From a virus (lineage: Duplodnaviria > Heunggongvirae > Uroviricota > Caudoviricetes): 64,000 bases of DNA. Made by a program: the position numbers and the translations under genes. The stretch spans positions 21,267 to 85,266 of the IMG/VR virus record IMGVR_UViG_3300037510_000012; one strand, 5' to 3'. Of the stretch, positions 1,446 through 49,715 are shown one piece after another; position 1 is the stretch's first letter, and every line of letters starts with the position of its first letter. The notes below the pieces were generated by a model that saw nothing but the letters and a program-made list of their open reading frames with translations, was not told where the DNA came from and did not search any database.

Positions 1446-4400
1446 TTGGCATATACTGAACTACATTTGCACGACTACTATTCAACTCTGGATGGTCTTA
1501 ACTCTCCAGAGGAATACATGCAGCGCGCGAAAGAGCTGGGAATGACCCACCTTGCGCAGACTAATCACGGTACCCTTCTTGGTCACCGTGAATTCCAGAA
1601 GGCTGCCAATAACGCTGGAATCATTCCAATCCTTGGCGTTGAGGCGTACATTTCGCCAACCGACCGGTTTGACCGACGAGCCAAGGCTAAGCGTACTGAC
1701 GGTACAAACGTCTATAACCACCTTATCATTGTCTCTCAGAATGAGACTGGTTTGAAGACTCTTCAGACTCTCAATGAGAAGGCATGGATGGAAGGCTTCT
1801 ATAACAAGCCTCGTATCGATATGGAACTTCTTGAAGAGCACAACGAGGGTCTTATCGTTCTTTCTGGTTGTCTCAACTCGATGCTTTGTAAGGCGATTGA
1901 GGCAGGTAATTACGAAGAGGCTGAGCGTATTGCTCTGGAGTTCAAGCGTATTCTTGGTGACCGCTTCTACATTGAGGTGCAGGCTCACAACCCTGTGAAG
2001 ATGAATGAGGCTCTGTTCAAGATTGCTGACGACAATGGTATCAAGCCGGTCGTTACATCTGACTGTCACTATGCCCGTAAGGAAGACCTTTGGATTGAAG
2101 AGGCAATGCTTATTCTCTCGACCAATCCGAAGTTCAGCAAGGAGTACGACTTTAGCAAGTCTCAGAAGATGGACATGCTTGAGCGCTTCAATTACCTCTA
2201 TCCTGACCGTACCATGACGTTTGAGGAAATCCAGATTTACCTCAAGTCTGCTGAAGAGCAGCTTAATGATTTCCGAAGCCATGGATTCGACCGCGAGGAT
2301 ATCGTCAAGAACACTGAGGAAATTGCTTCTCGAATTGAGGAGTATCCTTTCCATCAGAACCTTGACCTTCTTCCGAAGCCTAAGAACGGTAACCCTGACG
2401 ACCTTCTGGAAAAGAAGGCGCGGGCGGGTCTGCGTAATCGTGGTTTGGACAAGAATCCAGAATACGTAGAGCGACTTGAGGAAGAGCTGGAGATTATCAA
2501 GTCTAAGGACTTCTCCACGTACTTTCTTGTTGTGGCGAATATGATTAAGTGGGCAAAGGACCAGGGAATTCTTGTTGGCCCCGGTCGTGGTTCTGGTGCT
2601 GGTTCTCTCGTGAACTACGCTCTCGGAATCACAGAGGTTGACCCAATTAAGTGGGGCTTGCTGTTCTTCCGCTTTATCAACCCTGAACGAAATGACTTCC
2701 CTGACATTGACACCGACTTTGAGGACCGTAGGCGTAACGAGATTAAGGACTACCTTACCAGGAAGTTCACTCATGTTGCATCTATTGCCACTGTAGGTTA
2801 CTTCAAGGATAAGGGTGTCGTTCGTGATGCTGCACGAGTTTTCAGAATTGACCCTAAGGAAACCGATGAGGCTCTGAAGACGATTGCAACATTTGAGGAA
2901 TACCAGACTTCATCTGCTACTGAGGAGTATCGTAAGAAGTATCCTGAGGTAGAGAAGTTGGCGAACGAGCTTCGTGGTCGTATTCGTCAGACTGGTATGC
3001 ACGCGGCCGGTATTGTAATCTCTAAGGAGCCTATTGCAAAGTATGCTCCAATTGAGACTGCTGCCGACCCTAAGGACAAGACAGCACCTAGGCGTGCGCT
3101 TGTTGCTTTGGACATGAATGAGGCTGCTGACCTTGGCCTGATTAAGTTGGATGCCCTTGGCCTTAAGACGCTTTCCGTTATGGGTGACGCAATCAAGATG
3201 ATTGAGAAGCGACACAATAGGAAGATTGTTCTTACTGACATTCCTCTTGAGGACCCAAAGGTTTACAACATGATTTCGGCTGGTCACACAAAGGGAGTCT
3301 TCCAGTGTGAAGCAACTCCGTATACTGGACTCATCATGAACATGGGTGGTGTTAATTCATTCGCTGAACTTGCTGCGTCTAACGCTCTTGTTCGGCCGGG
3401 TGCTATGAATACCATCGGTGCAGAGTATATTGCTCGTAAGAATGGCGAATCAGTCGTCACGTATCCACACGAGGATATGCGATGGTTCACTGAAGAGACG
3501 TATGGCGAGATTCTTTATCAGGAGCAGGTCATGCTTACCATGACTGAGCTTGCCGGAATGTCTATGGCAACTGCTGATAAGGTTCGAAAGATTATCGGTA
3601 AGAAGAAGGACGCTCGTGAATTCGACGCTTATCGTGACGAGTTTATTGAGGGTGCTTCAAAGAAGGTTTCAAAGGCTGTGGCTGAAAAGCTGTGGCACGA
3701 CTTTGAGGCTCACGCGGGTTACTCTTTCAACAAGAGTCACGCTGTTGCTTACTCGATGATTTCTTACTGGACTGCATGGCTGAAGACGTACTATCCTGTC
3801 GAGTTCATTTATGCTATGATGAAGAACGAAAACGACAAGGACGTTCGTACGACATACCTCATTGAGGCTAAGCGTATCGGCGTCAAGGTCAAGTTGCCTC
3901 ACGTCAATCACTCTGAACTTGACTTCTCTGTTGAGGACGATGGTATCAGATTCGGTCTTGCCAACATCAAGTTTATTTCTGACAACCTCGGAAAGAAGTT
4001 GATTGATGCTAGGCCGTATGAGAATTACGCAGCGCTTGAGGCAAAGGTCATGGAGAAGGGCAACGGACTGAACATCCGAGTGCTCAAGTCTCTGAACGCA
4101 ATTGGTGCAGCAACGTTCGTTGACAATCCAAAGCGTGGGGATGAACGGCATTTCTTCTACGAATACCTTAGCATCCCAGCGTTTGAAATTCCTGACATGC
4201 CACCGGGTGTTAATCAGCAGTTTACTCCACTCAGTGAATTCCGTGAAGATGGAAATAGCATCATCATGGGAATGGTCAAGAATGTAAAGCGCGGAAGTGG
4301 CTGGTCTCGAATTGAAGTTGTTGATGAAACTGGTGAGGCTTCGTTCTTCCACAAGGAAGACACGCTTATCGCTCCAGGCAATATGTATGCAATGCTTATC

Positions 4401-19662: not shown

Positions 19663-19733
19663 ATCTCAGAGCGTAGGTTGTGTCGGTCGGTCTCCAAAAC
19701 CGACTCGTGAGAGTTCGAATCTCTCCTGGGGTG
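19663..19733 (+). tRNA. tRNA-Trp(CCA)
   Basis: Anticodon arm TCGGT-CTCCAAA-ACCGA; T-arm GAGAG-TTCGAAT-CTCTC; acceptor ATCTCAG/CTGGGGT with G-U pairs. Confidence 0.55.
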
Positions 19734-19734
19734 C

Positions 19735-19764
19735 TTGACTTCCAAGTCTTGGAGGTGCTAAGAT
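19735..19764 (+). promoter_or_regulatory. promoter TTGACT-N18-TAAGAT
   Basis: Sequence match. Confidence 0.45.
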
Positions 19765-19856
19765 GGTATATAGATTGAAGGCGCTGTTCTTCAAGTTCCG
19801 CCCGGTGGTTGACAAGCTACTGAGCAGATGGTACGTTAGAAGAACAAAGTAAGCAA

Positions 19857-19985
19857 CAAGCTTTCGGGTCGGCTGGATGAGGGTTATCTAACCTAAACAA
19901 TTATACAGTCAATGGTAATTCCTGGTGGATTCCAGGGAGTGTGGTGACTATAACACCTCTCCCTCGCCAATAACATATCCGAAAA
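19857..19985 (+). ncRNA. structured leader/sRNA unit U1 (5' AAGCTT-TCGGGTCGG ... AACATATCCG 3') immediately upstream of tRNA-Ile
   Basis: 5' GGATGAGGGTTATC pairs with 3' AATAACATATCC (5 bp + 5 bp); internal hairpins TCCTGG/CCAGGG and GGGAG/CTCCC. Confidence 0.35.
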
Positions 19986-19988
19986 CAA

Positions 19989-20063
19989 TGGGGTATAGCT
20001 CGGTCTGGTTAGAGCATTCCGCTGATAACGGAACGGTCGTCGGTTCAAATCCGACTGCCCCAA
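19989..20063 (+). tRNA. tRNA-Ile(GAT)
   Basis: D GCTC..GAGC; anticodon arm TTCCG-CTGATAA-CGGAA; T GTCGG-TTCAAAT-CCGAC. Confidence 0.7.
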
Positions 20064-20462
20064 CTTTATGGGTCGGATTCAGTAGTTTAACTTAAATCCA
20101 AACCGCGTGTCCTAGGTTCGAATCCTAGTCCCGGCTTTCTTGTCGGGGTAGCTCAGTGGCAGAGCAGTGGTCCTTAAAAAACACTATTGAAACAACATAT
20201 CCATTAAATAACTTAAAATTTGCGGGTCGGAAGAATTCAGTTATCTTTCTACCACAAACAATCAGAAAACCGCAGGTTCGACTCCTCGGAGGGATGAATG
20301 TGAGAGGTCACAGCTAGGCATGAAGCTTAGTGAATCCAGCTTCTGAATTCTATAATATATCCGCAAAAGCTTTGGGTCGGATGAAGACGTTTATCGTAAG
20401 TTCAACTCTTATCATCCCCCCTCATGGGGATGGGGCGTGGTGCCCACTCGTTTTCTACAACA

Positions 20463-20559
20463 TACCCATTATGGAAGGTCAATCCGATTGGCGACGGAAC
20501 TTGTCTTGAAAACAAGCGAGGTGTGAAAGCCCTTAGGAGTTCGACTCTCCTACCTTCCG
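20463..20559 (+). tRNA. tRNA-Ser(TGA), class II with a long variable arm
   Basis: Acceptor GGAAGGT/ACCTTCC 7/7; anticodon arm CTTGT-CTTGAAA-ACAAG; T AGGAG-TTCGACT-CTCCT. Confidence 0.6.
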
Positions 20560-20579
20560 CTTTACCCTAAGGAGTAAAA

Positions 20580-20765
20580 TTGACTGAGACAGAGAATGTC
20601 GGTCCTACATCGTATCAGCTAGCAATCATCCTTGCACTTCAGAGCAAGCATGTATACGCTAACACAGTTAGTTACGATGAGATTGCACGACGACGTAAGG
20701 CAAGCAAGCGAGCGCGGCTACAGCGCAGAACAAACAGAAGGCTTGACACGACACGTCGCTCGTGA
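20580..20765 (+). CDS. hypothetical small basic protein
   Basis: TTG start 5 nt after AAGGAG; lies between tRNA-Ser and tRNA-Asp. Confidence 0.35.
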   Translation: MTETENVGPTSYQLAIILALQSKHVYANTVSYDEIARRRKASKRARLQRRTNRRLDTTRRS

Positions 20766-20844
20766 TAAGGTTTTATTAGATGGTCGGCAAGCAGGGAAGA
20801 GAAGGCTACAGGAGCTTGAGCAACAACACCTTCCACCATCACAT

Positions 20845-20917
20845 GCGTCGTTAGTTCAGCGGTCAGAGCACTGCCCTGTCAAGGCAGAAGTCGCGGGTTC
20901 GAATCCCGTACGGCGCG
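20845..20917 (+). tRNA. tRNA-Asp(GTC)
   Basis: Acceptor GCGTCGT/ACGGCGC; anticodon arm CTGCC-CTGTCAA-GGCAG; T GCGGG-TTCGAAT-CCCGT. Confidence 0.85.
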
Positions 20918-20947
20918 CTTTCGTAAAGGAATAAAGAGGGAGTTCTA

Positions 20948-21148
20948 ATGGCACGAGTTAAGAAGTTTGACCTTGTTGAGCTTGACAAGGAAGGCTGGTT
21001 CTCTGCTAAGGTAAGTGGAAAGTTCCGGGGTTTGGTCGAGAAGACTGGACGAAGCAACTACACTCTTCACCTTGGCAAGAACGATGTAACTAACTTCAAG
21101 ACTAAGAAGGCTCTTGAGACTTGGCTCACCGAGAAGTGGGCATCATAA
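20948..21148 (+). CDS. hypothetical protein
   Basis: ORF track; RBS GGAATAAAGAGGGAG. Confidence 0.5.
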   Translation: MARVKKFDLVELDKEGWFSAKVSGKFRGLVEKTGRSNYTLHLGKNDVTNFKTKKALETWLTEKWAS

Positions 21149-21239
21149 TTAAATATTGATAAACGTTCGGGTCGGATGTAATTGCTTATCTATTATGGGA
21201 ATAAAACGCGATTACTCTAACATATCCGTTCTAAACTTC

Positions 21240-21395
21240 TAGCCCTAACAATTTCGGGTCGGAGTTTCTTGGTTACCTTACTATGCATGAGAAGTTGTCG
21301 GTTCGAATCCGGCCGGGTCCATTCATGGGCCTGTAGTTTAATTGGCAAAACTTACACCGAGGAACGTTTCATATCCGTCTTAATTGTTAGGGCTA
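21240..21395 (+). ncRNA. candidate Y RNA-like tRNA-mimic: a 14-bp terminal helix enclosing a tRNA-like T-arm module
   Basis: TAGCCCTAACAATT (21240-53) is the perfect reverse complement of AATTGTTAGGGCTA (21382-95). Inside are GGGTCGGAG, a T-arm GTCGG-TTCGAAT-CCGGC and tRNA-5'-half-like GGGCCTGTAGTTTAATTGGCAAAACT. It lies 650 nt upstream of the Ro60 gene. Confidence 0.4.
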
Positions 21396-21421
21396 AGCTT
21401 TTGTCTAGAAAAGGAGAGACA

Positions 21422-21607
21422 ATGCCTCGCTACGAGAAGAAGGTCAAGATTAACGCAAACCTCGTAAAGAAGTATGACGAGGAATACTACCGAGTCCTTG
21501 ACGATGTGCAGATGCGTGAGCTAAAGTTCAAGGGACATGTCCGGCCGGAAGGTAAGGTTGTTGAAACCAGGACACACATCATCAGCTATTACATTGAGGT
21601 GGATTGA
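21422..21607 (+). CDS. hypothetical protein
   Basis: ATG after AAAGGAGAG; the track ORF 21269 extends upstream into a structured-RNA region. Confidence 0.5.
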   Translation: MPRYEKKVKINANLVKKYDEEYYRVLDDVQMRELKFKGHVRPEGKVVETRTHIISYYIEVD

Positions 21608-22047: not shown

Positions 22048-23664
22048 ATGTCTAATGCACTTGGTAAGTTTGCTGCTTCTCAGAAGCAGGAGCGCGTTGC
22101 TACGCCTCAGACAAAGCGTACCCCTGGTCGTACGGATGAGGTCAAGAACAACGCGGGCGGGTTTGTGTTCAAGGTAGACGACAAGTCTCGTCTTGAGCGC
22201 TTCCTGGTGTTGGGTACTGACAAGGGTACCTATTACGTTGGTGAGCAGAAGTTGACGGCTCAGAACATTTCCTTCCTGAAGGAGATGGTCCGTAAGGATG
22301 AGCGTCTGGTCGTGGACACTGCTGTTGACGTCTCTGTAAACGCTCGTGCGCTTAAGAATTCTCCTGCGCTGTTCGCTATGGCTCTGGTCATGACGGAGGG
22401 CAAGGACAAGGCTTACGCTCGTGAGGCCGTACAGAAGGTTGCTCGTACGTCTACCCACCTTTTCGAGTACGCACAGTACATCGATGACCTGGGTGGTTGG
22501 GGTCGAGCAAAGCGTCGTTCTGTCGCTGAGTGGTACGAGAACAAGTCTATCGATGCGCTTGCGTATCAGGCTGTGAAGTACCGTCAGAGGAACGGTTGGA
22601 CGCACCGTGACCTTTTCCGTCTTGCTCACCCTCAGGGTGTAGACCAGGGTGTTGGTAACTTCATCCTTGGCAAGGACGTTGAGGCTGAGGTGGAAATTCT
22701 TAAGGGCTTCGCTGCAATGCAGTCTGCGACTTCGGTCAAGGATGTTATTCGCACGCTGGAGACTTTCAAGAACCTTCCTTGGGAGACCATCCCTACTCAG
22801 TTCCTCAAGGATGTGAAGGTCTGGAAGACTCTGTTCTACAACGGTCAGCTTCGTGGCCAGGCTCTCATTCGCAACATTACTCGACTCGCTCGAATTGGTG
22901 CGTTTGATGACATGGTTTTCGCAACTGACTACGCGAACGCAATTGCTAACCAGGAAATGATTCAGAAGACTCGTCTTCACCCAATCAACTTCCTGAATGC
23001 GGTTGTTGTTCACGAGAGTGGACAGATTGACCGTAACGGTTACAGCATGTGGAGTGCCGGACGTAAGAAGGATTGGAAGTCTAACGGAAAGATTGTGGAT
23101 GCTCTCAATGAGGGATTCCACATGGCATTCAAGACTGTCGAGCCTTCTGGCAAGAGGACTCTGGTTGCGACTGACGTGTCTGGCTCAATGAGTCAGGCTG
23201 CCATCGGACTTGACCTCTCTTGTGCTCAGGTTTCTGCGGCTGTTGCTATGACGGTTGCGCGTTCCGAGCCTTACAGTGACATTGTTGGCTTCTCTAGCAG
23301 CATTGTTGACTTGGGCATTACCGCTAAGAGTTCTTTTGCCGACGCAATGCGTAAGGTGAGTAACAGGAACTTTGGTGGTACGGATGCGGCTGCTGCAATT
23401 AAGTACGCTAACCAGAAGGGAATTCAGGTTGACACCTTCGTAGTTATCACTGATAACGAGACGTGGGGCGGAAGCCAGAAGCCTTTCCAGGCACTTAAGC
23501 AGTACCGTCAGAAGACCGGAATTGATGCGCGTCTTGCGGTTCTCGGTGTGGCGTCTACGGACTTCACCATCGCTGACCCTACGGACCGTGGAATGATGGA
23601 CTTCGTTGGTTTCGATGCAAATGCGCCTAAGGCCCTCGCGGACTTCAGCGCTGGTCGTATCTGA
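22048..23664 (+). CDS. rsr: Ro60/Rsr ortholog (TROVE domain plus C-terminal vWA with a MIDAS motif)
   Basis: 538 aa; C-terminal vWA with DVSGSM MIDAS motif at ~370; N-terminal HEAT-like TROVE region; bacterial and phage Rsr genes usually sit beside Y RNA genes. Confidence 0.7.
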   Translation: MSNALGKFAASQKQERVATPQTKRTPGRTDEVKNNAGGFVFKVDDKSRLERFLVLGTDKGTYYVGEQKLTAQNISFLKEMVRKDERLVVDTAVDVSVNARALKNSPALFAMALVMTEGKDKAYAREAVQKVARTSTHLFEYAQYIDDLGGWGRAKRRSVAEWYENKSIDALAYQAVKYRQRNGWTHRDLFRLAHPQGVDQGVGNFILGKDVEAEVEILKGFAAMQSATSVKDVIRTLETFKNLPWETIPTQFLKDVKVWKTLFYNGQLRGQALIRNITRLARIGAFDDMVFATDYANAIANQEMIQKTRLHPINFLNAVVVHESGQIDRNGYSMWSAGRKKDWKSNGKIVDALNEGFHMAFKTVEPSGKRTLVATDVSGSMSQAAIGLDLSCAQVSAAVAMTVARSEPYSDIVGFSSSIVDLGITAKSSFADAMRKVSNRNFGGTDAAAAIKYANQKGIQVDTFVVITDNETWGGSQKPFQALKQYRQKTGIDARLAVLGVASTDFTIADPTDRGMMDFVGFDANAPKALADFSAGRI

Positions 23665-25026: not shown

Positions 25027-25104
25027 GCCCCAGTATCGCCACTGGCTTCTAACCAGTCGTTAACAGCGTAATGGAGTATGCAGGTTCGAATCCTGTCTGG
25101 GGTA
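25027..25104 (+). tRNA. tRNA, atypical (possible TCT anticodon; D-arm unclear)
   Basis: Acceptor GCCCCAG/CTGGGGT 7/7; T GCAGG-TTCGAAT-CCTGT; internal hairpin ACTGG-CTTCTAA-CCAGT. Confidence 0.45.
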
Positions 25105-26804: not shown

Positions 26805-26812
26805 GGACACAT

Positions 26813-30500: not shown

Positions 30501-30779
30501 GGGGTAGCTTGGTTTCGACTTTGCTGGACGGGATATAAACGCAACCCTTCTTGGTCAAAGAAGTAAAACGGGCCAACCAAATAAATGCAAACTCTATGAA
30601 TGCATCTGCTTTCGCTCTAGCAGCGTAAAAGCCGGGTTTGTCGGGAACCTAGGAACAGAATCCCGACTAGTACAAAATGTGTAGATAATGTGTAAGACCC
30701 TTCAGTGTGATTGACAATGGTTGTAGAACGGTTATATGCTAGATAGTAAAGGACGCGGGTTCGACTCCCGCCTACTCCA
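30501..30779 (+). ncRNA. ssrA: tmRNA (ssrA) with tag reading frame ANSMNASAFALAA*
   Basis: 5' GGGGTAGCTTGGTTTCGAC...GGGATATAAACGCAACCC matches E. coli ssrA GGGGCTGATTCTGGATTCGACGGGATTTGCGAAACCC. 3' GGACGCGGGTTCGACTCCCGCCTACTCCA matches GGACGCGGGTTCAACTCCCGCCAGCTCCA. Acceptor has the G3-U70 Ala identity pair; tag frame runs GCA...GCT CTA GCA GCG TAA. Confidence 0.75.
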
Positions 30780-31561
30780 CACAGAAAGATATGGTAATGA
30801 GAGTAACAAATCTCTACATCTATGGTACTGTCGAGTACCTGCGTAGGCTTGAGGAAGACTACGTGTTCATGGGTAGACAAGTGAGACTTGAAGATGATAG
30901 GCTCATCGTGTTCGCGCTTCCCAGGAAGAAGCGAAAGAAGTCTCCCAGTAAGCAGCGCCGTAGGCGTTGACAGACAGGGTTGGAACCTGTTAAGGTATAA
31001 GTAGAAGGTCAGGCAGTCGGACAAGGCTTAGGCGAGTGAGAGTAGTTCAAGCGGTGGTAACTTAAATGCCCACTTAATGATGCTCAACAAATCGGTGGGA
31101 TGCGAGTGGACTAGTCCTGACCTTTTAAGCTTCAATCTGTGGATAACGAAAGGGGTCCGGCGTTCTGTGAACTGGCAGTCGGGTAGCCTGGCATGATACA
31201 ATAAACCTCTAGCGGGGTTAGTCACCCAAGAGTAAAGTTCATTGAGGGTGAGCAGATTGAAAACTAGGTTGCGAGAGGGACAACGGGTGTGCTAAGGTTA
31301 GGTACCGAATCAAGGCACCAAGGTAGATAAGGGGAGAACAGCAAAGGGTCTCCGTGTATCGCAACCAAGCTTTGCAGCAAGCAGGCCAAACGCTATAGAC
31401 AGGGATACAAGGTTCTGAAAAGATAACGCCCATTTGGCAGGGTAGAAAGTTATCACCTGATGCTATCCACGCTGCAACTATGGAGATGACCGGAAACTTC
31501 TCCATAAGCTTCCTTCGTACAAAGCTGTAGGAATAAAAACAAACACGAAGGGTATTAAAAT

Positions 31562-34931: not shown

Positions 34932-35999
34932 ATGGTACACGTTTCGAAGATTTTCTCGCTCGATGCGTTGCAGAAGGATATCGATGCGGGATTGGTACGT
35001 TCACAGGTAAATGAGGATGGGACGCTCCGCATTTACAATTACACCGAAGAGGTTCAGTACAAGCGAATGTGGAATGACGTTACGCTGAATTGTCGTGGCC
35101 TTATTCTCGACAATTACATGCACGTTGTTGCTCGTCCATGGAAGAAGTTCTTCAATTTCGGTGAGCGTCCTCTTCTATTCAGCACTGACACTCCGGTTGA
35201 GGTGACTGACAAGAAGGATGGTTCATTGGGTATTCTTTATCGTCACCCAATGACCGGGGATTACCGAATTGCAACTCGTGGCTCTTTCTTGTCTGACCAG
35301 GCTATTCACGCTACAAAGGTCTGGGACAACAAGTACAGCCACATCGCACAGCCTTGGGATGGAGTTACATTCCTGTTTGAGATTGTGTACCCTGACAATC
35401 GCATTGTGCTGGATTACGGTGAGCTTGATGACCTAATCTTGCTGGGTGCCGTTCACAATCAGTATGGATGGTACTACGGTCCGAACGAGGCTGCTGGGAT
35501 GCTCAACTGGACTGGTCCTGTCACTGAGGTCTTTGAGTACCGGACCACGAACGACTGCTTCAAGGTGCACCGTTCAAATGCTGAGGGTCTGGTAATTCGG
35601 GCCGGTAGCGAGATGGTCAAGTTGAAGCAGGAGGACTACGTGGCTTTGCACAAGCTAGTCACAGGTCTGAACGAGCGTGCTGTATGGGAGCGCTTGAAGG
35701 CAGGCGAGACACGTGATAGTATCTGTGCATCGCTTCCCGATGAGTTCCACGGATTTGTTGACAAGGTTGCGGATGAGCTAGAGACAAAGTTCAACGAGAT
35801 TTACCACAGTTCCCACGTGGATTACTGTAAGGTGTTGAACATAATGCCTGGCAAATCAAGCATGAGTAAGGCAGACTGGCGTAAGATGTTCGCATCGCAC
35901 GCTGTTAAGATGCCTAACTACGACTTGATTTTCAACTACCTTGACAACCGTCCGGTACAGGAGTCTATTTGGAAAATGATTCGTCCTAAGGGCGAGTAA
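34932..35999 (+). CDS. ATP-dependent RNA ligase, T4 Rnl1-like
   Basis: Motif I KKDGSL (T4 Rnl1 is KEDGSL); motif III FEIVY; IV EGLVIR; V KLK. Confidence 0.7.
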   Translation: MVHVSKIFSLDALQKDIDAGLVRSQVNEDGTLRIYNYTEEVQYKRMWNDVTLNCRGLILDNYMHVVARPWKKFFNFGERPLLFSTDTPVEVTDKKDGSLGILYRHPMTGDYRIATRGSFLSDQAIHATKVWDNKYSHIAQPWDGVTFLFEIVYPDNRIVLDYGELDDLILLGAVHNQYGWYYGPNEAAGMLNWTGPVTEVFEYRTTNDCFKVHRSNAEGLVIRAGSEMVKLKQEDYVALHKLVTGLNERAVWERLKAGETRDSICASLPDEFHGFVDKVADELETKFNEIYHSSHVDYCKVLNIMPGKSSMSKADWRKMFASHAVKMPNYDLIFNYLDNRPVQESIWKMIRPKGE

Positions 36000-36038: not shown

Positions 36039-36317
36039 ATGAAAAATCTGGATTATGAAAAAGTCATTGATGGATATAACGACCTTCGTGAAACATGCCT
36101 TGTAATTGCTAAGCTTAACGATGAGCTGATGGGTCCTGACAGATGGCTGAAGTTTGCCATCCAAGACTCGGATATCACGTTGATGTTTACAGAGCGAGGC
36201 ATCGTGTGCTATGGTAGTGCTTACACGACACAGACGATGGACAACGAACACTTCAGTTTCATGATTCCGTTTGAATATCTAGAGGAGTTTGAGGCAAATG
36301 CTAGAACTGGTGATTAA
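36039..36317 (+). CDS. hypothetical protein
   Basis: RBS GGAGGAGAAATG after a hairpin-AAGCTT. Confidence 0.5.
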   Translation: MKNLDYEKVIDGYNDLRETCLVIAKLNDELMGPDRWLKFAIQDSDITLMFTERGIVCYGSAYTTQTMDNEHFSFMIPFEYLEEFEANARTGD

Positions 36318-36717
36318 CCGGGGGATTCCTGGTAGTGGAAAGTCAACATATGCTCGTGAGTGGGTATTGAAGCCAGGAACCAGACGTGCTAGGGTTAATC
36401 GTGATGACATTCGAATGCAGCTCTATGGAGTTGAATTCGGTGTCCCGATTGAGGAGACTGTAGTAACGGCGGTTGAAGACCAGATGATTAACACCTTGCT
36501 TTCTGAGGGTGTCTCAGTCATCATTGATGACTGTAACATCAGTCAGCGATACATCAACAGGTTTACAAAGATGGGCGAGAAGCATGGCGCAGAGGTGAGA
36601 GTTAATCTCATCAACGTTGACCTTGCGACTGCTCTGGACCGGAATAGCAAGCGTGACCGTTTCGTTCCAACCCATGTAATTCAGGATATGTATAAGAGAC
36701 TTCAGGAGTCGCTGTAA
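36289..36717 (+). CDS. pnk: polynucleotide 5'-kinase (T4 Pnk kinase-domain-like)
   Basis: GIPGSGKSTYAREWV...VNRDD matches the T4 Pnk kinase domain (GCPGSGKSTWAREF...NRDD). Confidence 0.75.
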   Translation: MRQMLELVINRGIPGSGKSTYAREWVLKPGTRRARVNRDDIRMQLYGVEFGVPIEETVVTAVEDQMINTLLSEGVSVIIDDCNISQRYINRFTKMGEKHGAEVRVNLINVDLATALDRNSKRDRFVPTHVIQDMYKRLQESL

Positions 36718-47611: not shown

Positions 47612-47685
47612 GCTTGACAGACTCCTTGAAGGTCTGATAAGGTATTAAGTACAAGGTAAGGCAACCGCCAAAGAGTTGCCAACAT

Positions 47686-49081: not shown

Positions 49082-49137
49082 TAGATACATCGGGTCGGAC
49101 GGTTGACAAATAATCCGACCTAACATACACTTAGAGT

Positions 49138-49587
49138 ATGAAAACGTGCTCTAAGTGTAAGCTTGAAAAGCCTCTTGAGGATTTTCCAAAGAAGGGTTTC
49201 GTAAAGGGTAAGCAAGTTTATCGTTCGGACTGTAAAGATTGTAAGTCCGAATTGGATAAGAAGGTTTATGCCAATACAGACCTAGAAAGACGAAGAATTC
49301 TACAGGCCGAAGCCACTAAGCGAAGGCTTGCTAATAACAGGAAATTGGTGTATGACTACCTGAAGAACCATCCATGTGTAGATTGTGGACAGGACAACAT
49401 CATTGTGCTAGAGTTTGACCACGTAAGAGGTGAGAAGACGCAAAGCATTTCAACAATGGTTGCTAGACATAGACCAGAGTCAGAAATCCTAGAGGAAATT
49501 GAGAAGTGCGATGTTCGATGTGCAAATTGCCATCGTATCGTAACGGCTCAACGTGGTGGTTGGAATGTACTTGACCACCTAGACTGA
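49138..49587 (+). CDS. HNH endonuclease
   Basis: CVDC...H...CANCH. Confidence 0.7.
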   Translation: MKTCSKCKLEKPLEDFPKKGFVKGKQVYRSDCKDCKSELDKKVYANTDLERRRILQAEATKRRLANNRKLVYDYLKNHPCVDCGQDNIIVLEFDHVRGEKTQSISTMVARHRPESEILEEIEKCDVRCANCHRIVTAQRGGWNVLDHLD

Positions 49588-49605
49588 ATGTGTTAAACTT
49601 GAATA

Positions 49606-49712
49606 TATCGGGTCGATTGGATAGGGTTATCTAACAATCAATTGGTGATGAGCCTTCGGGCAACCCTGCGGCGGGTATAGCCGCATCTCCCTTCCTCAAC
49701 ATATCCGATGTA
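49606..49712 (+). ncRNA. structured leader/sRNA unit U7, homologous to U1, immediately upstream of tRNA-Gly
   Basis: Shares TCGGGTCG-TTGGATAGGGTTATCTAAC at the 5' end and AACATATCCGA at the 3' end with the unit at 19857. Confidence 0.35.
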
Positions 49713-49715
49713 TTT

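Follow-up and report, generated by a model that had tools for sequence, protein, structure and literature searches.

The 64,000-nt stretch of phage DNA analysed here (the window) carries a 538-aa orthologue of Ro60/Rsr, which relatives annotate as "Ro-like RNA binding protein" and which has homologues in 115 Streptomyces and 212 Mycobacterium phage records. The protein matched the Pfam families TROVE (3.2e-37) and vWA_Ro60 (5.4e-56), as well as D. radiodurans Rsr (PDB 2nvo) over residues 19-537 (E 6.6e-100) and the Ro60 entries 9nen (E 1e-87) and 1yvp (E 4e-85), so that a TROVE HEAT-repeat ring, a C-terminal vWA domain and full-length similarity to solved structures were all found. The array region near this gene is also the site of numerous tRNA genes, of a tmRNA gene and of RNA-repair-type genes, and seven units (U1-U7) bounded by a recurrent pair of motifs are present, six of them in this region. 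The features discussed below are the following:

19735-19764, + strand: promoter-like site TTGACT-18-TAAGAT with extended TG, a consensus match only
approximately 19810-19838: second promoter candidate, TTGACA-17-TACGTT, a consensus match only
19862-19984, + strand: U1, predicted Y RNA-like gene with a non-tRNA head (YrlB-like)
20068-20204, + strand: U2, predicted YrlA-type Y RNA gene
20219-20367, + strand: U3, predicted Y RNA-like gene with a T-arm-like hairpin only
20373-20468, + strand: U4, predicted compact YrlA-type Y RNA gene
21168-21228, + strand: U5, predicted minimal Y RNA-like hairpin (H1, H2, CUUAUCU and a small loop)
21240-21395 (core 21255-21377), + strand: U6, predicted YrlA-type Y RNA gene
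22048-23664, + strand: Ro60/Rsr orthologue, 538 aa, presumed protein partner of U1-U7
49602-49714, + strand: U7, predicted Y RNA-like gene, 27.5 kb downstream of Ro60

U1-U6 share the strand of Ro60 and precede the gene by 671-2186 nt (U6 being the nearest, at 671 nt), which places them inside the 4 kb, same-strand limit that has been applied to YrlA loci (PMC4201824); U7, about 27.5 kb downstream, is the exception. The promoter-like site at 19735-19764 stands upstream of the block U1/tRNA-Ile/U2/U3/U4/tRNA-Ser, and a promoter-like TTGACC-17-TAAACT is found just upstream of U7.

That two motifs exist here and recur as a pair, as the original prediction had claimed, was borne out well above chance by shuffle counts over the 64-kb window. 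For GGGTCGG, 4.6 copies were expected and 14 are present, 10 of them on the + strand (none of 100 shuffles reached 14); for CATATCC the corresponding figures are 6.8 and 17. The composite 5' module G[GA]G[CT]CG-N4-16-TTA[TAC]C matched 10 times where 2.9 +/- 1.6 matches were expected, none of 200 shuffles giving more than 7, and seven of these ten are the units, all on the + strand. Three other GGGTCGG sites were discarded as units, namely 26791, which overlaps the 5' end of tRNA-Lys, 38162, within tRNA-Val, and 48680, within an ORF where phage Gilson annotates a coding gene. The 5' sites first proposed were real, although their positions were off by 1-5 nt; the motifs stand at 19866, 20070, 20224, 20374, 21169, 21256 and 49610. 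The 3' motifs, 8-9 nt long, start at 19972, 20194, 20355, 20459, 21219, 21369 and 49698, the fourth having been placed 13 nt away, at 20446. The unit lengths of approximately 60-140 nt were correctly given, and the extended 5' block ascribed to both U1 and U7, GGAT(G)AGGGTTATCTAAC, is present in both. Two further sets of proposed units did not hold up: the site at 49090/49092 is a short GGGTCGGA...TCCGACC hairpin before an ORF, with neither UUAUC nor AUCC, and the Glu (47681) and Trp leaders, which have no 5' partner, are ordinary leaders containing ACAT.

All seven units share one anatomy. The 5' (N)GGGU pairs with the 3' A(U/C)CC(N') to form a first helix (H1), inside which a conserved internal loop sets 5'-strand CG(G/A)A opposite 3'-strand (A)ACAU; beyond this loop come a second helix (H2), different in sequence in each unit, a UUAUC box and a variable head. 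The 5' motifs read GUCGGAUG in U4 and U5, GUCGGAAG in U3, GUCGGAGU in U6, GUCGGAUU in U2, GUCGGCUG in U1 and GUCGAUUG in U7. By sequence, the CG(G/A)A / (A)ACAU element corresponds to the GNCGAAN0-1G motif of YrlA and to the animal GGUCCGA, the predicted contact with the Ro60 ring, although the published GNCGAAN0-1G is exact in no window unit and only G-N-C-G is invariant. The YUAY box is UUAUC in U1, U3, U4, U5 and U7 and UUACC in U6, whereas UUAAC in U2 departs from it at the fourth position.

The proposal that the terminal motifs base-pair with each other was right in that the ends do pair, but the register suggested for them, CGGAUGU with ACAUAUCCG, is not the conserved one. We prefer the (N)GGGU / A(U/C)CC(N') register because it covaries, while CGGAU with AUCCG, which RNAalifold also chose on the long U6 alignment, cannot form in those units of phage Faust from which GGAUG is missing, or in U4, where the 3' end is ACCC. 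Moreover, the RNA is to be read from the + strand, since the invariant G:U pair of H1 would be C-A on the other strand. H2 duplexes of cognate 5' and 3' strands average -10.8 kcal/mol, and those of non-cognate strands -5.6. When orthologues were aligned, as had been suggested for this family, covariation was found between the 5' and 3' terminal motifs, in small sets of 5-8 related phages (7-8 for U2, U3 and U6) and with structures derived from the same alignments: compensatory pairs amounted to 14/31 in U2 (99% of cells paired; 0/500 shuffles), 20/44 in U3 (94% of cells paired; 0/500 shuffles), 7/33 in U6, 4/12 in H2 of U5 across 8 phages, and two in the acceptor-like stem of U4 among 5 orthologues. 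An extra outer helix of U6 (H0, approximately 15 bp, 21240-21253 with 21382-21395) has 5/15 compensatory pairs, or 6/20 together with H1.

The heads divide the units. In U2, U4 and U6 they hold, in this order, a T arm, a 7-bp acceptor-like stem-loop and a D arm, with T and D loops of tRNA-type sequence, and the minimum-free-energy folds of all three give the terminal helix, H2 and a T/acceptor-like stem/D three-way junction; the T, acceptor-like and D helices covary in the U2 and U6 alignments. In U2 (H1 (A)UGGGU / AUCCA(U); H2 20078-20086 with 20181-20191) the T arm is at 20112-20128, the acceptor-like stem-loop at 20129-20148 and the D arm at 20151-20165. The corresponding elements of U4 (H1 UGGGU / ACCCA; H2 20383-20389 with 20449-20455) are at 20396-20412, 20413-20432 (again 7 bp) and 20433-20445, and those of U6, at 21297-21313, 21314-21333 and 21336-21351, are preceded by an anticodon-arm-like V hairpin at 21277-21291. 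These tRNA arms in permuted order had been overlooked in the first reading of the sequence. U3 (H2 20233-20240 with 20343-20350) has a T-like arm only, a hairpin at 20270-20289 (GGUUCGACUCC), and a branched two-hairpin domain replaces the acceptor and D arms. No tRNA-like domain is found in U1, U5 or U7, and the heads of these three have no characterised counterpart. U1 has a terminal helix of UUUCGGGU / AUCCGAAA, an H2 of 19876-19883 with 19957-19965 and the GGGUUAUCUAAC box; H2 of U5 is 21178-21185 with 21208-21215; and U7, with an extended H1 (AUAUCGGGU / AUCCGAUGU) and the GGAUAGGGUUAUCUAAC block common to U1, has a head that resembles unit 1 of phage Faust.

In related Streptomyces phages orthologous arrays with compensatory changes are present; the original prediction had advised a search for the motif pair in related phages. 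U1 has orthologues in Forrest, Francob, Patelgo, Moab, Stigma and Karp, and the complete genome of Gilson has seven units, all on the + strand, of which the one at 96659 occupies the same position as U7 but has a different H2 and head. The exact GNCGAAN0-1G motif does occur among these relatives, as GUCGAAG in Coruscant and as GUCGAAUG in LukeCage and Limpid, and GGGCCGAAG at bacterial Ro60 loci also matches it exactly. Furthermore, the module G(G/A)G(C/U)CG...UUAUC stands upstream of Ro60 in Chthonomonas, Fimbriimonadia and Poribacteria metagenome-assembled genomes (MAGs) and in mycobacteriophage Alice. The unit RNAs are annotated in none of the 13 related phage records examined, and at least one record appears to annotate half a Y RNA as tRNA-His. 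In the literature searched, Y RNAs of Streptomyces phages are nowhere described, the genome announcements mentioning only the "Ro-like RNA binding protein".

Covariance models point in the same direction for two of the units. At Rfam gathering thresholds only tRNAs and the tmRNA were detected, and not YrlA (RF02553); at relaxed E-values YrlA was the best match outside the tRNA clan for both U2 (29.0 bits over the full model) and U6 (28.5 bits). No window unit thus reached the YrlA gathering score of 69 bits, but this was also missed by our control, the YrlA-type RNA of mycobacteriophage Alice (37.4 bits), and by all candidates from bacterial Ro60 loci (33-43 bits), so that the threshold looks too strict for these lineages. 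We also built an independent model (R1), whose only sources were Y RNA candidates from Ro60 loci of Poribacteria MAGs and from a further MAG contig (L016); it used a subset of six sequences, because the 5' modules came out misaligned when nine diverse YrlA candidates were aligned with MAFFT. With E-values that are rough owing to a shortened calibration, R1 matched U6 over the full-length model (42.3 bits, E 3.5e-10), U2 (36.4 bits, E 2.2e-8) and the Alice control (50.6 bits, E 1e-12), and it also matched the U2 units of Faust and Limpid. It gave no match to U4 at E<1 and none to the non-tRNA units at E<0.1, with U7 at only 11.9 bits. The Rfam model of animal Y RNAs (RF00019) had no match at E<=10 in 19700-21500.

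Motif enrichment, a covarying fold, an adjoining Ro60 gene and significant matches to independent Y RNA models were all observed, and we read the repeated motif pair as marking both ends of seven genes for small structured RNAs of Y RNA type, the predicted partners of Ro60, with a probability of about 0.88. On this reading the system is a recognisable, unannotated case of a known RNA-protein pairing, Ro60 and Y RNA, in a Streptomyces phage, and not a new type of tRNA flank. By their predicted anatomy, U2, U4 and U6 are YrlA-type Y RNAs, while U1, U5 and U7, with other, non-tRNA heads, would at best be called YrlB-like. The original prediction of a structured RNA family with pairing terminal motifs is therefore upheld by the covariation, but its functional reading as tRNA leader or spacer elements is not.

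In that reading the units were leaders, spacers or processing cassettes that would guide RNases P, E or Z, duplicated together with the tRNAs and having no function as stable RNAs. Their setting is suggestive, since they sit within a tRNA-rich region, with the motif cores of U1, U4 and U7 ending 8, 5 and 9 nt upstream of tRNA-Ile (19989), tRNA-Ser (20473) and tRNA-Gly(tcc) (49716), and that of U2 beginning 5 nt downstream of tRNA-Ile. However, a tRNA array "built from" such units was an overstatement: a unit stands just upstream of only three of the 31 tRNA genes that ARAGORN finds in the window (Ile, Ser-tga and Gly-tcc), and U5 and U6 touch no tRNA, being flanked by protein-coding genes. The same module also recurs at Ro60 genes of bacterial contigs with almost no tRNA genes nearby; on the Chthonomonas, Fimbriimonadia and Poribacteria contigs, an Rfam scan scored a single ordinary tRNA gene well, on the opposite strand. 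Elaborate covarying heads, including T/acceptor-like/D domains, would moreover be needless in a spacer. Because the units have Y RNA anatomy (a Ro60-binding-type stem in all and a YrlA-type tRNA-like domain in three) and six of them lie no more than 2.2 kb upstream of a same-strand Ro60 gene, we consider that they are not tRNA leaders or spacers, an explanation that we now hold to be improbable. Still less is to be expected of DNA-level repeats (promoter or terminator cassettes, recombination sites or miniature mobile elements) that have no RNA function, the least probable of the explanations weighed here. Such repeats would account for short conserved end motifs recurring beside AAGCTT and TTGAC-type promoter-like sequences, but not for helices kept through G:U and compensatory changes that make sense only for a + strand RNA, nor for the + strand orientation of 7/7 units in the window and 7/7 in Gilson; target-site duplications and minus-strand copies were not found.

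The tRNA-like heads raise another question, namely whether U2, U4 and U6 are circularly permuted tRNA genes whose products are recircularised and recut to functional tRNAs, with the flanks as processing signals. Such genes are present in Cyanidioschyzon merolae, where the products are circularised and recut to functional tRNAs, and in some archaea, and the units resemble them in the order 3' half, linker, 5' half and in their matching acceptor strands: the T arm and 3' acceptor strand precede the matching 5' acceptor strand and D arm. ARAGORN finds cloverleaves in U2 and U6 only after rotation, calling tRNA-Trp(cca) and tRNA-His(atg) when the units are tandem-duplicated. These cloverleaves, however, require 58 nt (U2) or 45 nt (U6) to be taken as an "intron" and have no conserved 7-nt anticodon loop. 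Unlike permuted tRNA genes, the units do not allow an anticodon loop to be re-formed, and their junction consists of a long conserved stem of Ro type in place of a bulge-helix-bulge. As in YrlA, a conserved loop of 6 nt caps the acceptor stem, and ordinary tRNA-Trp and tRNA-His genes are already present in the phage. The context is that of a bacterial virus, and no splicing endonuclease route is known from bacteria or phages. Functional permuted tRNAs were rejected since the "intron" is the conserved, covarying H1/H2 stem of Ro type, also present in U1, U5 and U7, which have no tRNA arms; we hold this explanation to be even more doubtful than that of tRNA cassettes, though less so than that of DNA repeats.

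As Y RNAs, the units have several known counterparts. The gene for bacterial YrlA (RF02553) likewise lies a short way upstream of Ro60/Rsr and in the same orientation (Chen et al., 2014; PMC4201824), and the RNA has a 5' G-N-C-G motif beside the end-to-end helix, followed by YUAY, and the T arm, acceptor-like stem-loop and D arm seen in U2, U4 and U6, with a 7-bp acceptor-like stem in M. smegmatis (PMC4201824). Several Y RNAs may also derive from one precursor, as they do in the YrlA systems (PMC4201824), such a precursor being putative in the phage. The phage units differ in that their 5' motif is GUCGGA(U/A)G instead of GNCGAA and in that they fall short of the Rfam gathering score; in that their 3' strand, (A)ACAUAUCC, is conserved as well, whereas in the Salmonella and M. 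smegmatis RNAs the 5' strand alone was described as recognisable (PMC4201824); and in that three YrlA-type paralogues are interleaved with genuine tRNA genes. YrlB RNAs are second, shorter Rsr-bound RNAs found beside YrlA in S. Typhimurium and M. smegmatis (PMC4201824), which U1, U3, U5 and U7 resemble, by description only, in having the common 5' motif and no full tRNA-like domain; in the M. smegmatis YrlB a T arm may be present (PMC4201824), which recalls U3, but in the window there are four such units and their heads are unrelated.

Among phages, mycobacteriophages encode Ro60 with Y-like RNAs upstream (PMC4201824), and Thermus phage phiLo forms a complex of phage Ro60, Yrl RNA and host PNPase, in which RNA binding to phage Ro60 and to host PNPase was shown experimentally (PMC12135203). 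In phiLo, Yrl1 and Yrl2 are also encoded directly upstream of the phage Ro60, and their stem, bulge, stem layout with a CGAA-type motif is like that of the units; however, phiLo has two RNAs, with no tRNA-like domain reported (PMC12135203), against seven predicted here, three of them with tRNA-like domains, and the motif here is of CGGA type and the host clade a different one. By analogy, the phiLo precedent suggests that the same mode of action may operate in the Streptomyces phage. Animal Y RNAs (RF00019) have paired ends, a conserved Ro60-bound 5' strand, GGUCCGA, where the units have GGGUCGGA as the predicted contact, and a variable loop or head thought to bind effectors, and several human Y RNAs carry a UUAUC-like box after the stem. 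Unlike U2, U4 and U6, they have no tRNA-like domains and are transcribed from individual Pol III genes, and their Rfam model finds no match here.

For the expression, processing, Ro60 binding and function of U1-U7 we infer the following course. Several units are probably cut out of tRNA-containing precursors: U1/tRNA-Ile/U2/U3/U4/tRNA-Ser and U7/tRNA-Gly would probably form polycistronic transcripts, from which tRNA-processing nucleases may release the units, while the long duplex around U6 resembles a substrate of RNase III and could be where this unit is freed. By homology, the stem would then dock on Ro60, and the heads would tether the protein, or gate it, towards partners (host PNPase, for example), with the outcome that RNA surveillance and decay might be redirected during infection. 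A more far-reaching scheme, speculative and on balance unlikely, would make the units a modular adaptor set in which one Ro60-docking stem with seven heads addresses different targets or partners, together with a recruited host nuclease, e.g., PNPase; after RNase P cleavage and addition of CCA, the three tRNA-like heads would serve as tRNA decoys or damage sensors, and the whole, together with approximately 35 phage tRNAs, the tmRNA, an Rnl1-type RNA ligase and a kinase, would be a countermeasure to host defences that cleave tRNAs.

Conservation of Ro60 and Y RNAs extends from bacteria to humans; Ro60 is a major autoantigen. No new type of system is revealed here. These Streptomyces phages would hold an unusually large set of paralogues, each genome having seven Y-like RNAs, of which three carry tRNA-like domains and four carry other heads, and both strands of the presumed Ro60-binding helix are conserved in these phages. 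In brief, the finding closes an annotation gap and offers a compact natural series, with the same stem and different heads, for probing how Y RNA modules direct Ro60.

The window derives from a Gilsonvirus-group phage of Streptomyces (Stanwilliamsviridae), with a genome of about 128 kb and with Forrest and Gilson as top DNA matches (about 91% identity). In it, the recurring motif pair described in the original prediction was real and above chance. Counts were 14 for GGGTCGG (4.6 expected; reached by no shuffle), 17 for CATATCC (6.8 expected), and 10 for the 5' module G[GA]G[CT]CG-N4-16-TTA[TAC]C (2.9 +/- 1.6 expected). Seven of these 10 matches are units, all on the plus strand, and were delimited by joining each 5' module to its best 3' partner; the predicted coordinates were a few nt off, one 3' site by 13 nt.

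Units (5' module joined to best 3' partner) and Ro60 gene in the window
19862-19984, plus strand: U1
20068-20204, plus strand: U2
20219-20367, plus strand: U3
20373-20468, plus strand: U4
21168-21228, plus strand: U5
21255-21377, plus strand: U6
49602-49714, plus strand: U7
22048-23664, plus strand: Ro60 orthologue (Pfam TROVE 3e-37; Ro60-type vWA 5e-56)

The additional sites at 49090 and 47681 and the tRNA-Trp leader are not units. A hairpin, CGGGTCGGACGG...TCCGACC (49092-49131), located before the ORF starting at 49139 and preceded by a promoter-like element (TG-n-TAAGAT) resembling that of U7, has GGGTCGGA in common with the units, and was rejected as a Y unit because UUAUC and the 3' AUCC are both missing.

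Arrays of five or six units occupy the same place in all nine relatives examined (Forrest, Francob, Patelgo, Moab, Stigma, Karp, Faust, Limpid, and Blueeyedbeauty). Both sides changed in 14 of 31 pairs in the U2 group (8 sequences; 99% of cells paired), 7 of 33 in the U6 group (7 sequences; 98%), 20 of 44 in the U3 group (7 sequences; 94%), and 4 of 12 in the U5 group (8 sequences); for U2, U6, and U3, 0/500 shuffles reached the cells-paired and covariation values, and each sliding control of the U2 group gave at most 5 both-side changes. The terminal pairing backed by comparison joins (N)GGGU to A(U/C)CC(N'), with a covarying flanking pair (C:G to U:A; A:U to G:C) and, in U4, G:U replaced by G:C. 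Hence, the two motifs do base-pair, as had been proposed, but the suggested CGGAUGU/ACAUAUCCG register is impossible in several orthologues. Since a G:U pair in the terminal helix is invariant, the RNA is read from the plus strand; a repeat acting at the DNA level fails against this strand-specific RNA covariation.

The Ro60 orthologue is the next sizeable gene downstream of the array, on the same strand, and matches D. radiodurans Rsr, the bacterial Ro60 (E 6.6e-100), and vertebrate Ro60 (about 1e-87). In a relaxed Rfam scan, YrlA (RF02553, "Y RNA-like") was the top family outside the tRNA clan for two units: U2, at 29 bits over the full-length model, and U6, at 28.5 bits. Neither reaches the YrlA threshold. 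YrlA in phages was first reported from mycobacteriophages (Chen et al., 2014; PMC4201824). A YrlA-type RNA lying upstream of the Ro60 gene of mycobacteriophage Alice reaches only 37 bits, and the candidates immediately upstream of Ro60 in MAGs of Chthonomonas and Poribacteria range over 33-43 bits; since these are also below threshold, the curated cut-off misses these lineages in general. The window units agree with the published account of YrlA except in the 5' motif, which reads GUCGGA(U/A)G, GUCGGCUG or GUCGAUUG, with only G-N-C-G invariant; the exact published motif is present in related units of Coruscant (GUCGAAG), LukeCage, and Limpid (GUCGAAUG).

Furthermore, a covariance model (R1) trained on six candidates, taken solely from MAG loci of Poribacteria plus a single further MAG contig, was searched against the window and other loci, with shortened calibration and hence rough E-values. 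R1 recovered the Alice control and Faust U2 (each 50.6 bits, E 1e-12), window U6 (42.3 bits, E 3.5e-10), and window U2 (36.4 bits, E 2.2e-8); U7 scored 11.9 bits (E 0.7), and U4 was not detected in the window search. A tRNA-Met tandem in the window (21.3 bits, E 1e-3) is a false positive of the kind flagged by Chen et al. (PMC4201824).

The same module occurs at other Ro60 loci. Alice carries three units upstream of Ro60, of the form AGGCCGA...CGGUUA(C/U)C...CCAUGUCU; Poribacteria loci carry as many as four, while a single unit is present in each of Chthonomonas and Fimbriimonadia. In CAINGU010000031.1, a 110-kb contig with more than 20 tRNA genes, probably from a phage binned with an "uncultured cyanobacterium" MAG, five Y-like units (3410-3965) lie directly upstream of a Ro60 61% identical to that of the window, one ending in AACAUAUCC exactly as in the window. 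The common form at the Alice, CAINGU010000031.1, and MAG loci is stem, G(G/A)G(C/U)CG(A/G), helix 2, (G)UUAUC on the 5' side, and helix 2', (C)A(U/C)N, (A/G)(U/C)CC, stem' on the 3' side. From this shared form, the two predicted motifs are the paired strands that make up the Ro60-binding-type helix in Y RNAs. The phage lineage conserves both strands, unlike Salmonella and M. smegmatis RNAs, where the 5' strand alone is recognisable (PMC4201824).

Minimum-free-energy folds close all six array units with the same terminal helix, and form in U2, U4, and U6 a T/acceptor-like/D three-way junction atop a two-helix stem. These three units contain tRNA arms in permuted order, overlooked in the original prediction: T arm (GGTTCGAATCC-type loop), 3' acceptor strand, 6-nt loop, matching 5' acceptor strand, D arm. 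ARAGORN called no tRNA in the native order of the units, and called cloverleaves after tandem duplication of U2 and U6. Functional permuted tRNAs nevertheless fail as an explanation, given that the sequence needing removal is the conserved stem, common to the non-tRNA units. The reading as tRNA leader or spacer cassettes also fails: U5 and U6 adjoin no tRNA, the bacterial module goes with Ro60 and not with tRNAs, and, since a unit lies directly upstream of only 3 of 31 tRNA genes, the description of the tRNA array as "built from" units does not hold.

As Y RNA-like genes, the units also vary. The second helix is unit-specific within the window (mean -10.8 kcal/mol for cognate vs -5.6 for non-cognate strands). 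In the complete Gilson genome, the module marks exactly seven plus-strand units, of which six lie upstream of Ro60 and the seventh precedes tRNA-Gly(tcc); the latter (Gilson 96659) differs from window U7 in helix 2 and head, the variable region beyond the UUAUC box, whereas U7 is closest to Faust unit 1 (locus L002, 2937-3051), which suggests that whole units or heads were exchanged between positions.

Several other RNA-related features were recorded.

Other RNA-related features of the window
30501-30780, plus strand: tmRNA, tag ANSMNASAFALAA (Rfam 84 bits)
34932-35999 and 36289-36717: T4 Rnl1-type RNA ligase (PF09511, 1.8e-13) and P-loop kinase (AAA_33, 1.3e-19)
21240-21253 with 21382-21395: inverted repeat TAGCCCTAACAATT / AATTGTTAGGGCTA around U6, adding about 15 bp to its terminal helix

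The 31 tRNA genes and one tmRNA called by ARAGORN are all on the plus strand. Rfam adds a tRNA directly after tRNA-Arg (25027-25104; 34 bits) that is absent from the ARAGORN calls, and places tRNA-Trp (19663-19734; 29.1 bits) barely at threshold. A manA-RNA-like element lies between tRNA genes in Faust (L002, 2580-2735; 46 bits, gathering score 55), with similar sequence between tRNA-Gln and tRNA-Trp in loci L011 and L012 (Blueeyedbeauty); it is absent from the window, where that gap is 12 nt. (A)CAU or UCAU/UCUU, giving U at -1, precedes several tRNA 5' ends (26807-26812, 47681-47685) as well as, in U2, U4, and U6, the acceptor-like loop sites where RNase P presumably cuts; all of these may have an RNase P context in common, which may account for some of the extra "AACAT" sightings. 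The ligase and kinase genes, the latter annotated as polynucleotide kinase in relatives, lie within the same tRNA-rich region as Ro60, and the three together resemble the bacterial rsr-yrlBA-rtcBA RNA-repair operon.

Regarding biogenesis, U1, tRNA-Ile, U2, U3, U4, and tRNA-Ser are only 5-21 nt apart, preceded by promoter-like sites at 19735 and about 19810, and U7 adjoins tRNA-Gly with its own promoter-like site upstream. In M. smegmatis, processing of a single precursor gives both YrlA and YrlB, and YrlA, with a 7-bp acceptor-like stem, is cleaved by RNase P and has CCA added (PMC4201824). Since the acceptor-like stems of U2, U4, and U6 are all 7 bp with U at -1, similar cleavage and CCA addition are plausible by analogy. 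The outer helix of U6, with 5 compensatory pairs and conserved in Faust, Limpid, and others, may be a candidate RNase III processing stem.

Y-like RNAs were annotated in none of 13 related phage records examined. In Blueeyedbeauty (NC_048720, 2685-2757), an annotated tRNA-His(gtg) overlies the 5' half of the unit orthologous to U6 (GGGTCGG through the T arm). No tRNA was called there by ARAGORN, the supposed "anticodon arm" corresponds to the Y RNA's V hairpin, and the annotation is probably a mis-called Y RNA. Our literature search found no published description of such RNAs in Streptomyces phages, whose genome announcements mention a Ro-like protein and nothing further on the system. Y-like RNAs accompanying a phage Ro60 were already described in 2014 (PMC4201824), and biochemistry followed in 2025 (PMC12135203): in Thermus phage phiLo, host PNPase is found in a complex with the phage Ro60 and its two Yrl RNAs encoded upstream (PMC12135203). 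In D. radiodurans and Salmonella, Y RNA tethers Ro60 to PNPase.

In brief, the window array is a rather rich example of an already known RNA-protein system and no new kind, in which, by analogy, Ro60 would dock on the unit stem, with its partners chosen by the variable heads.
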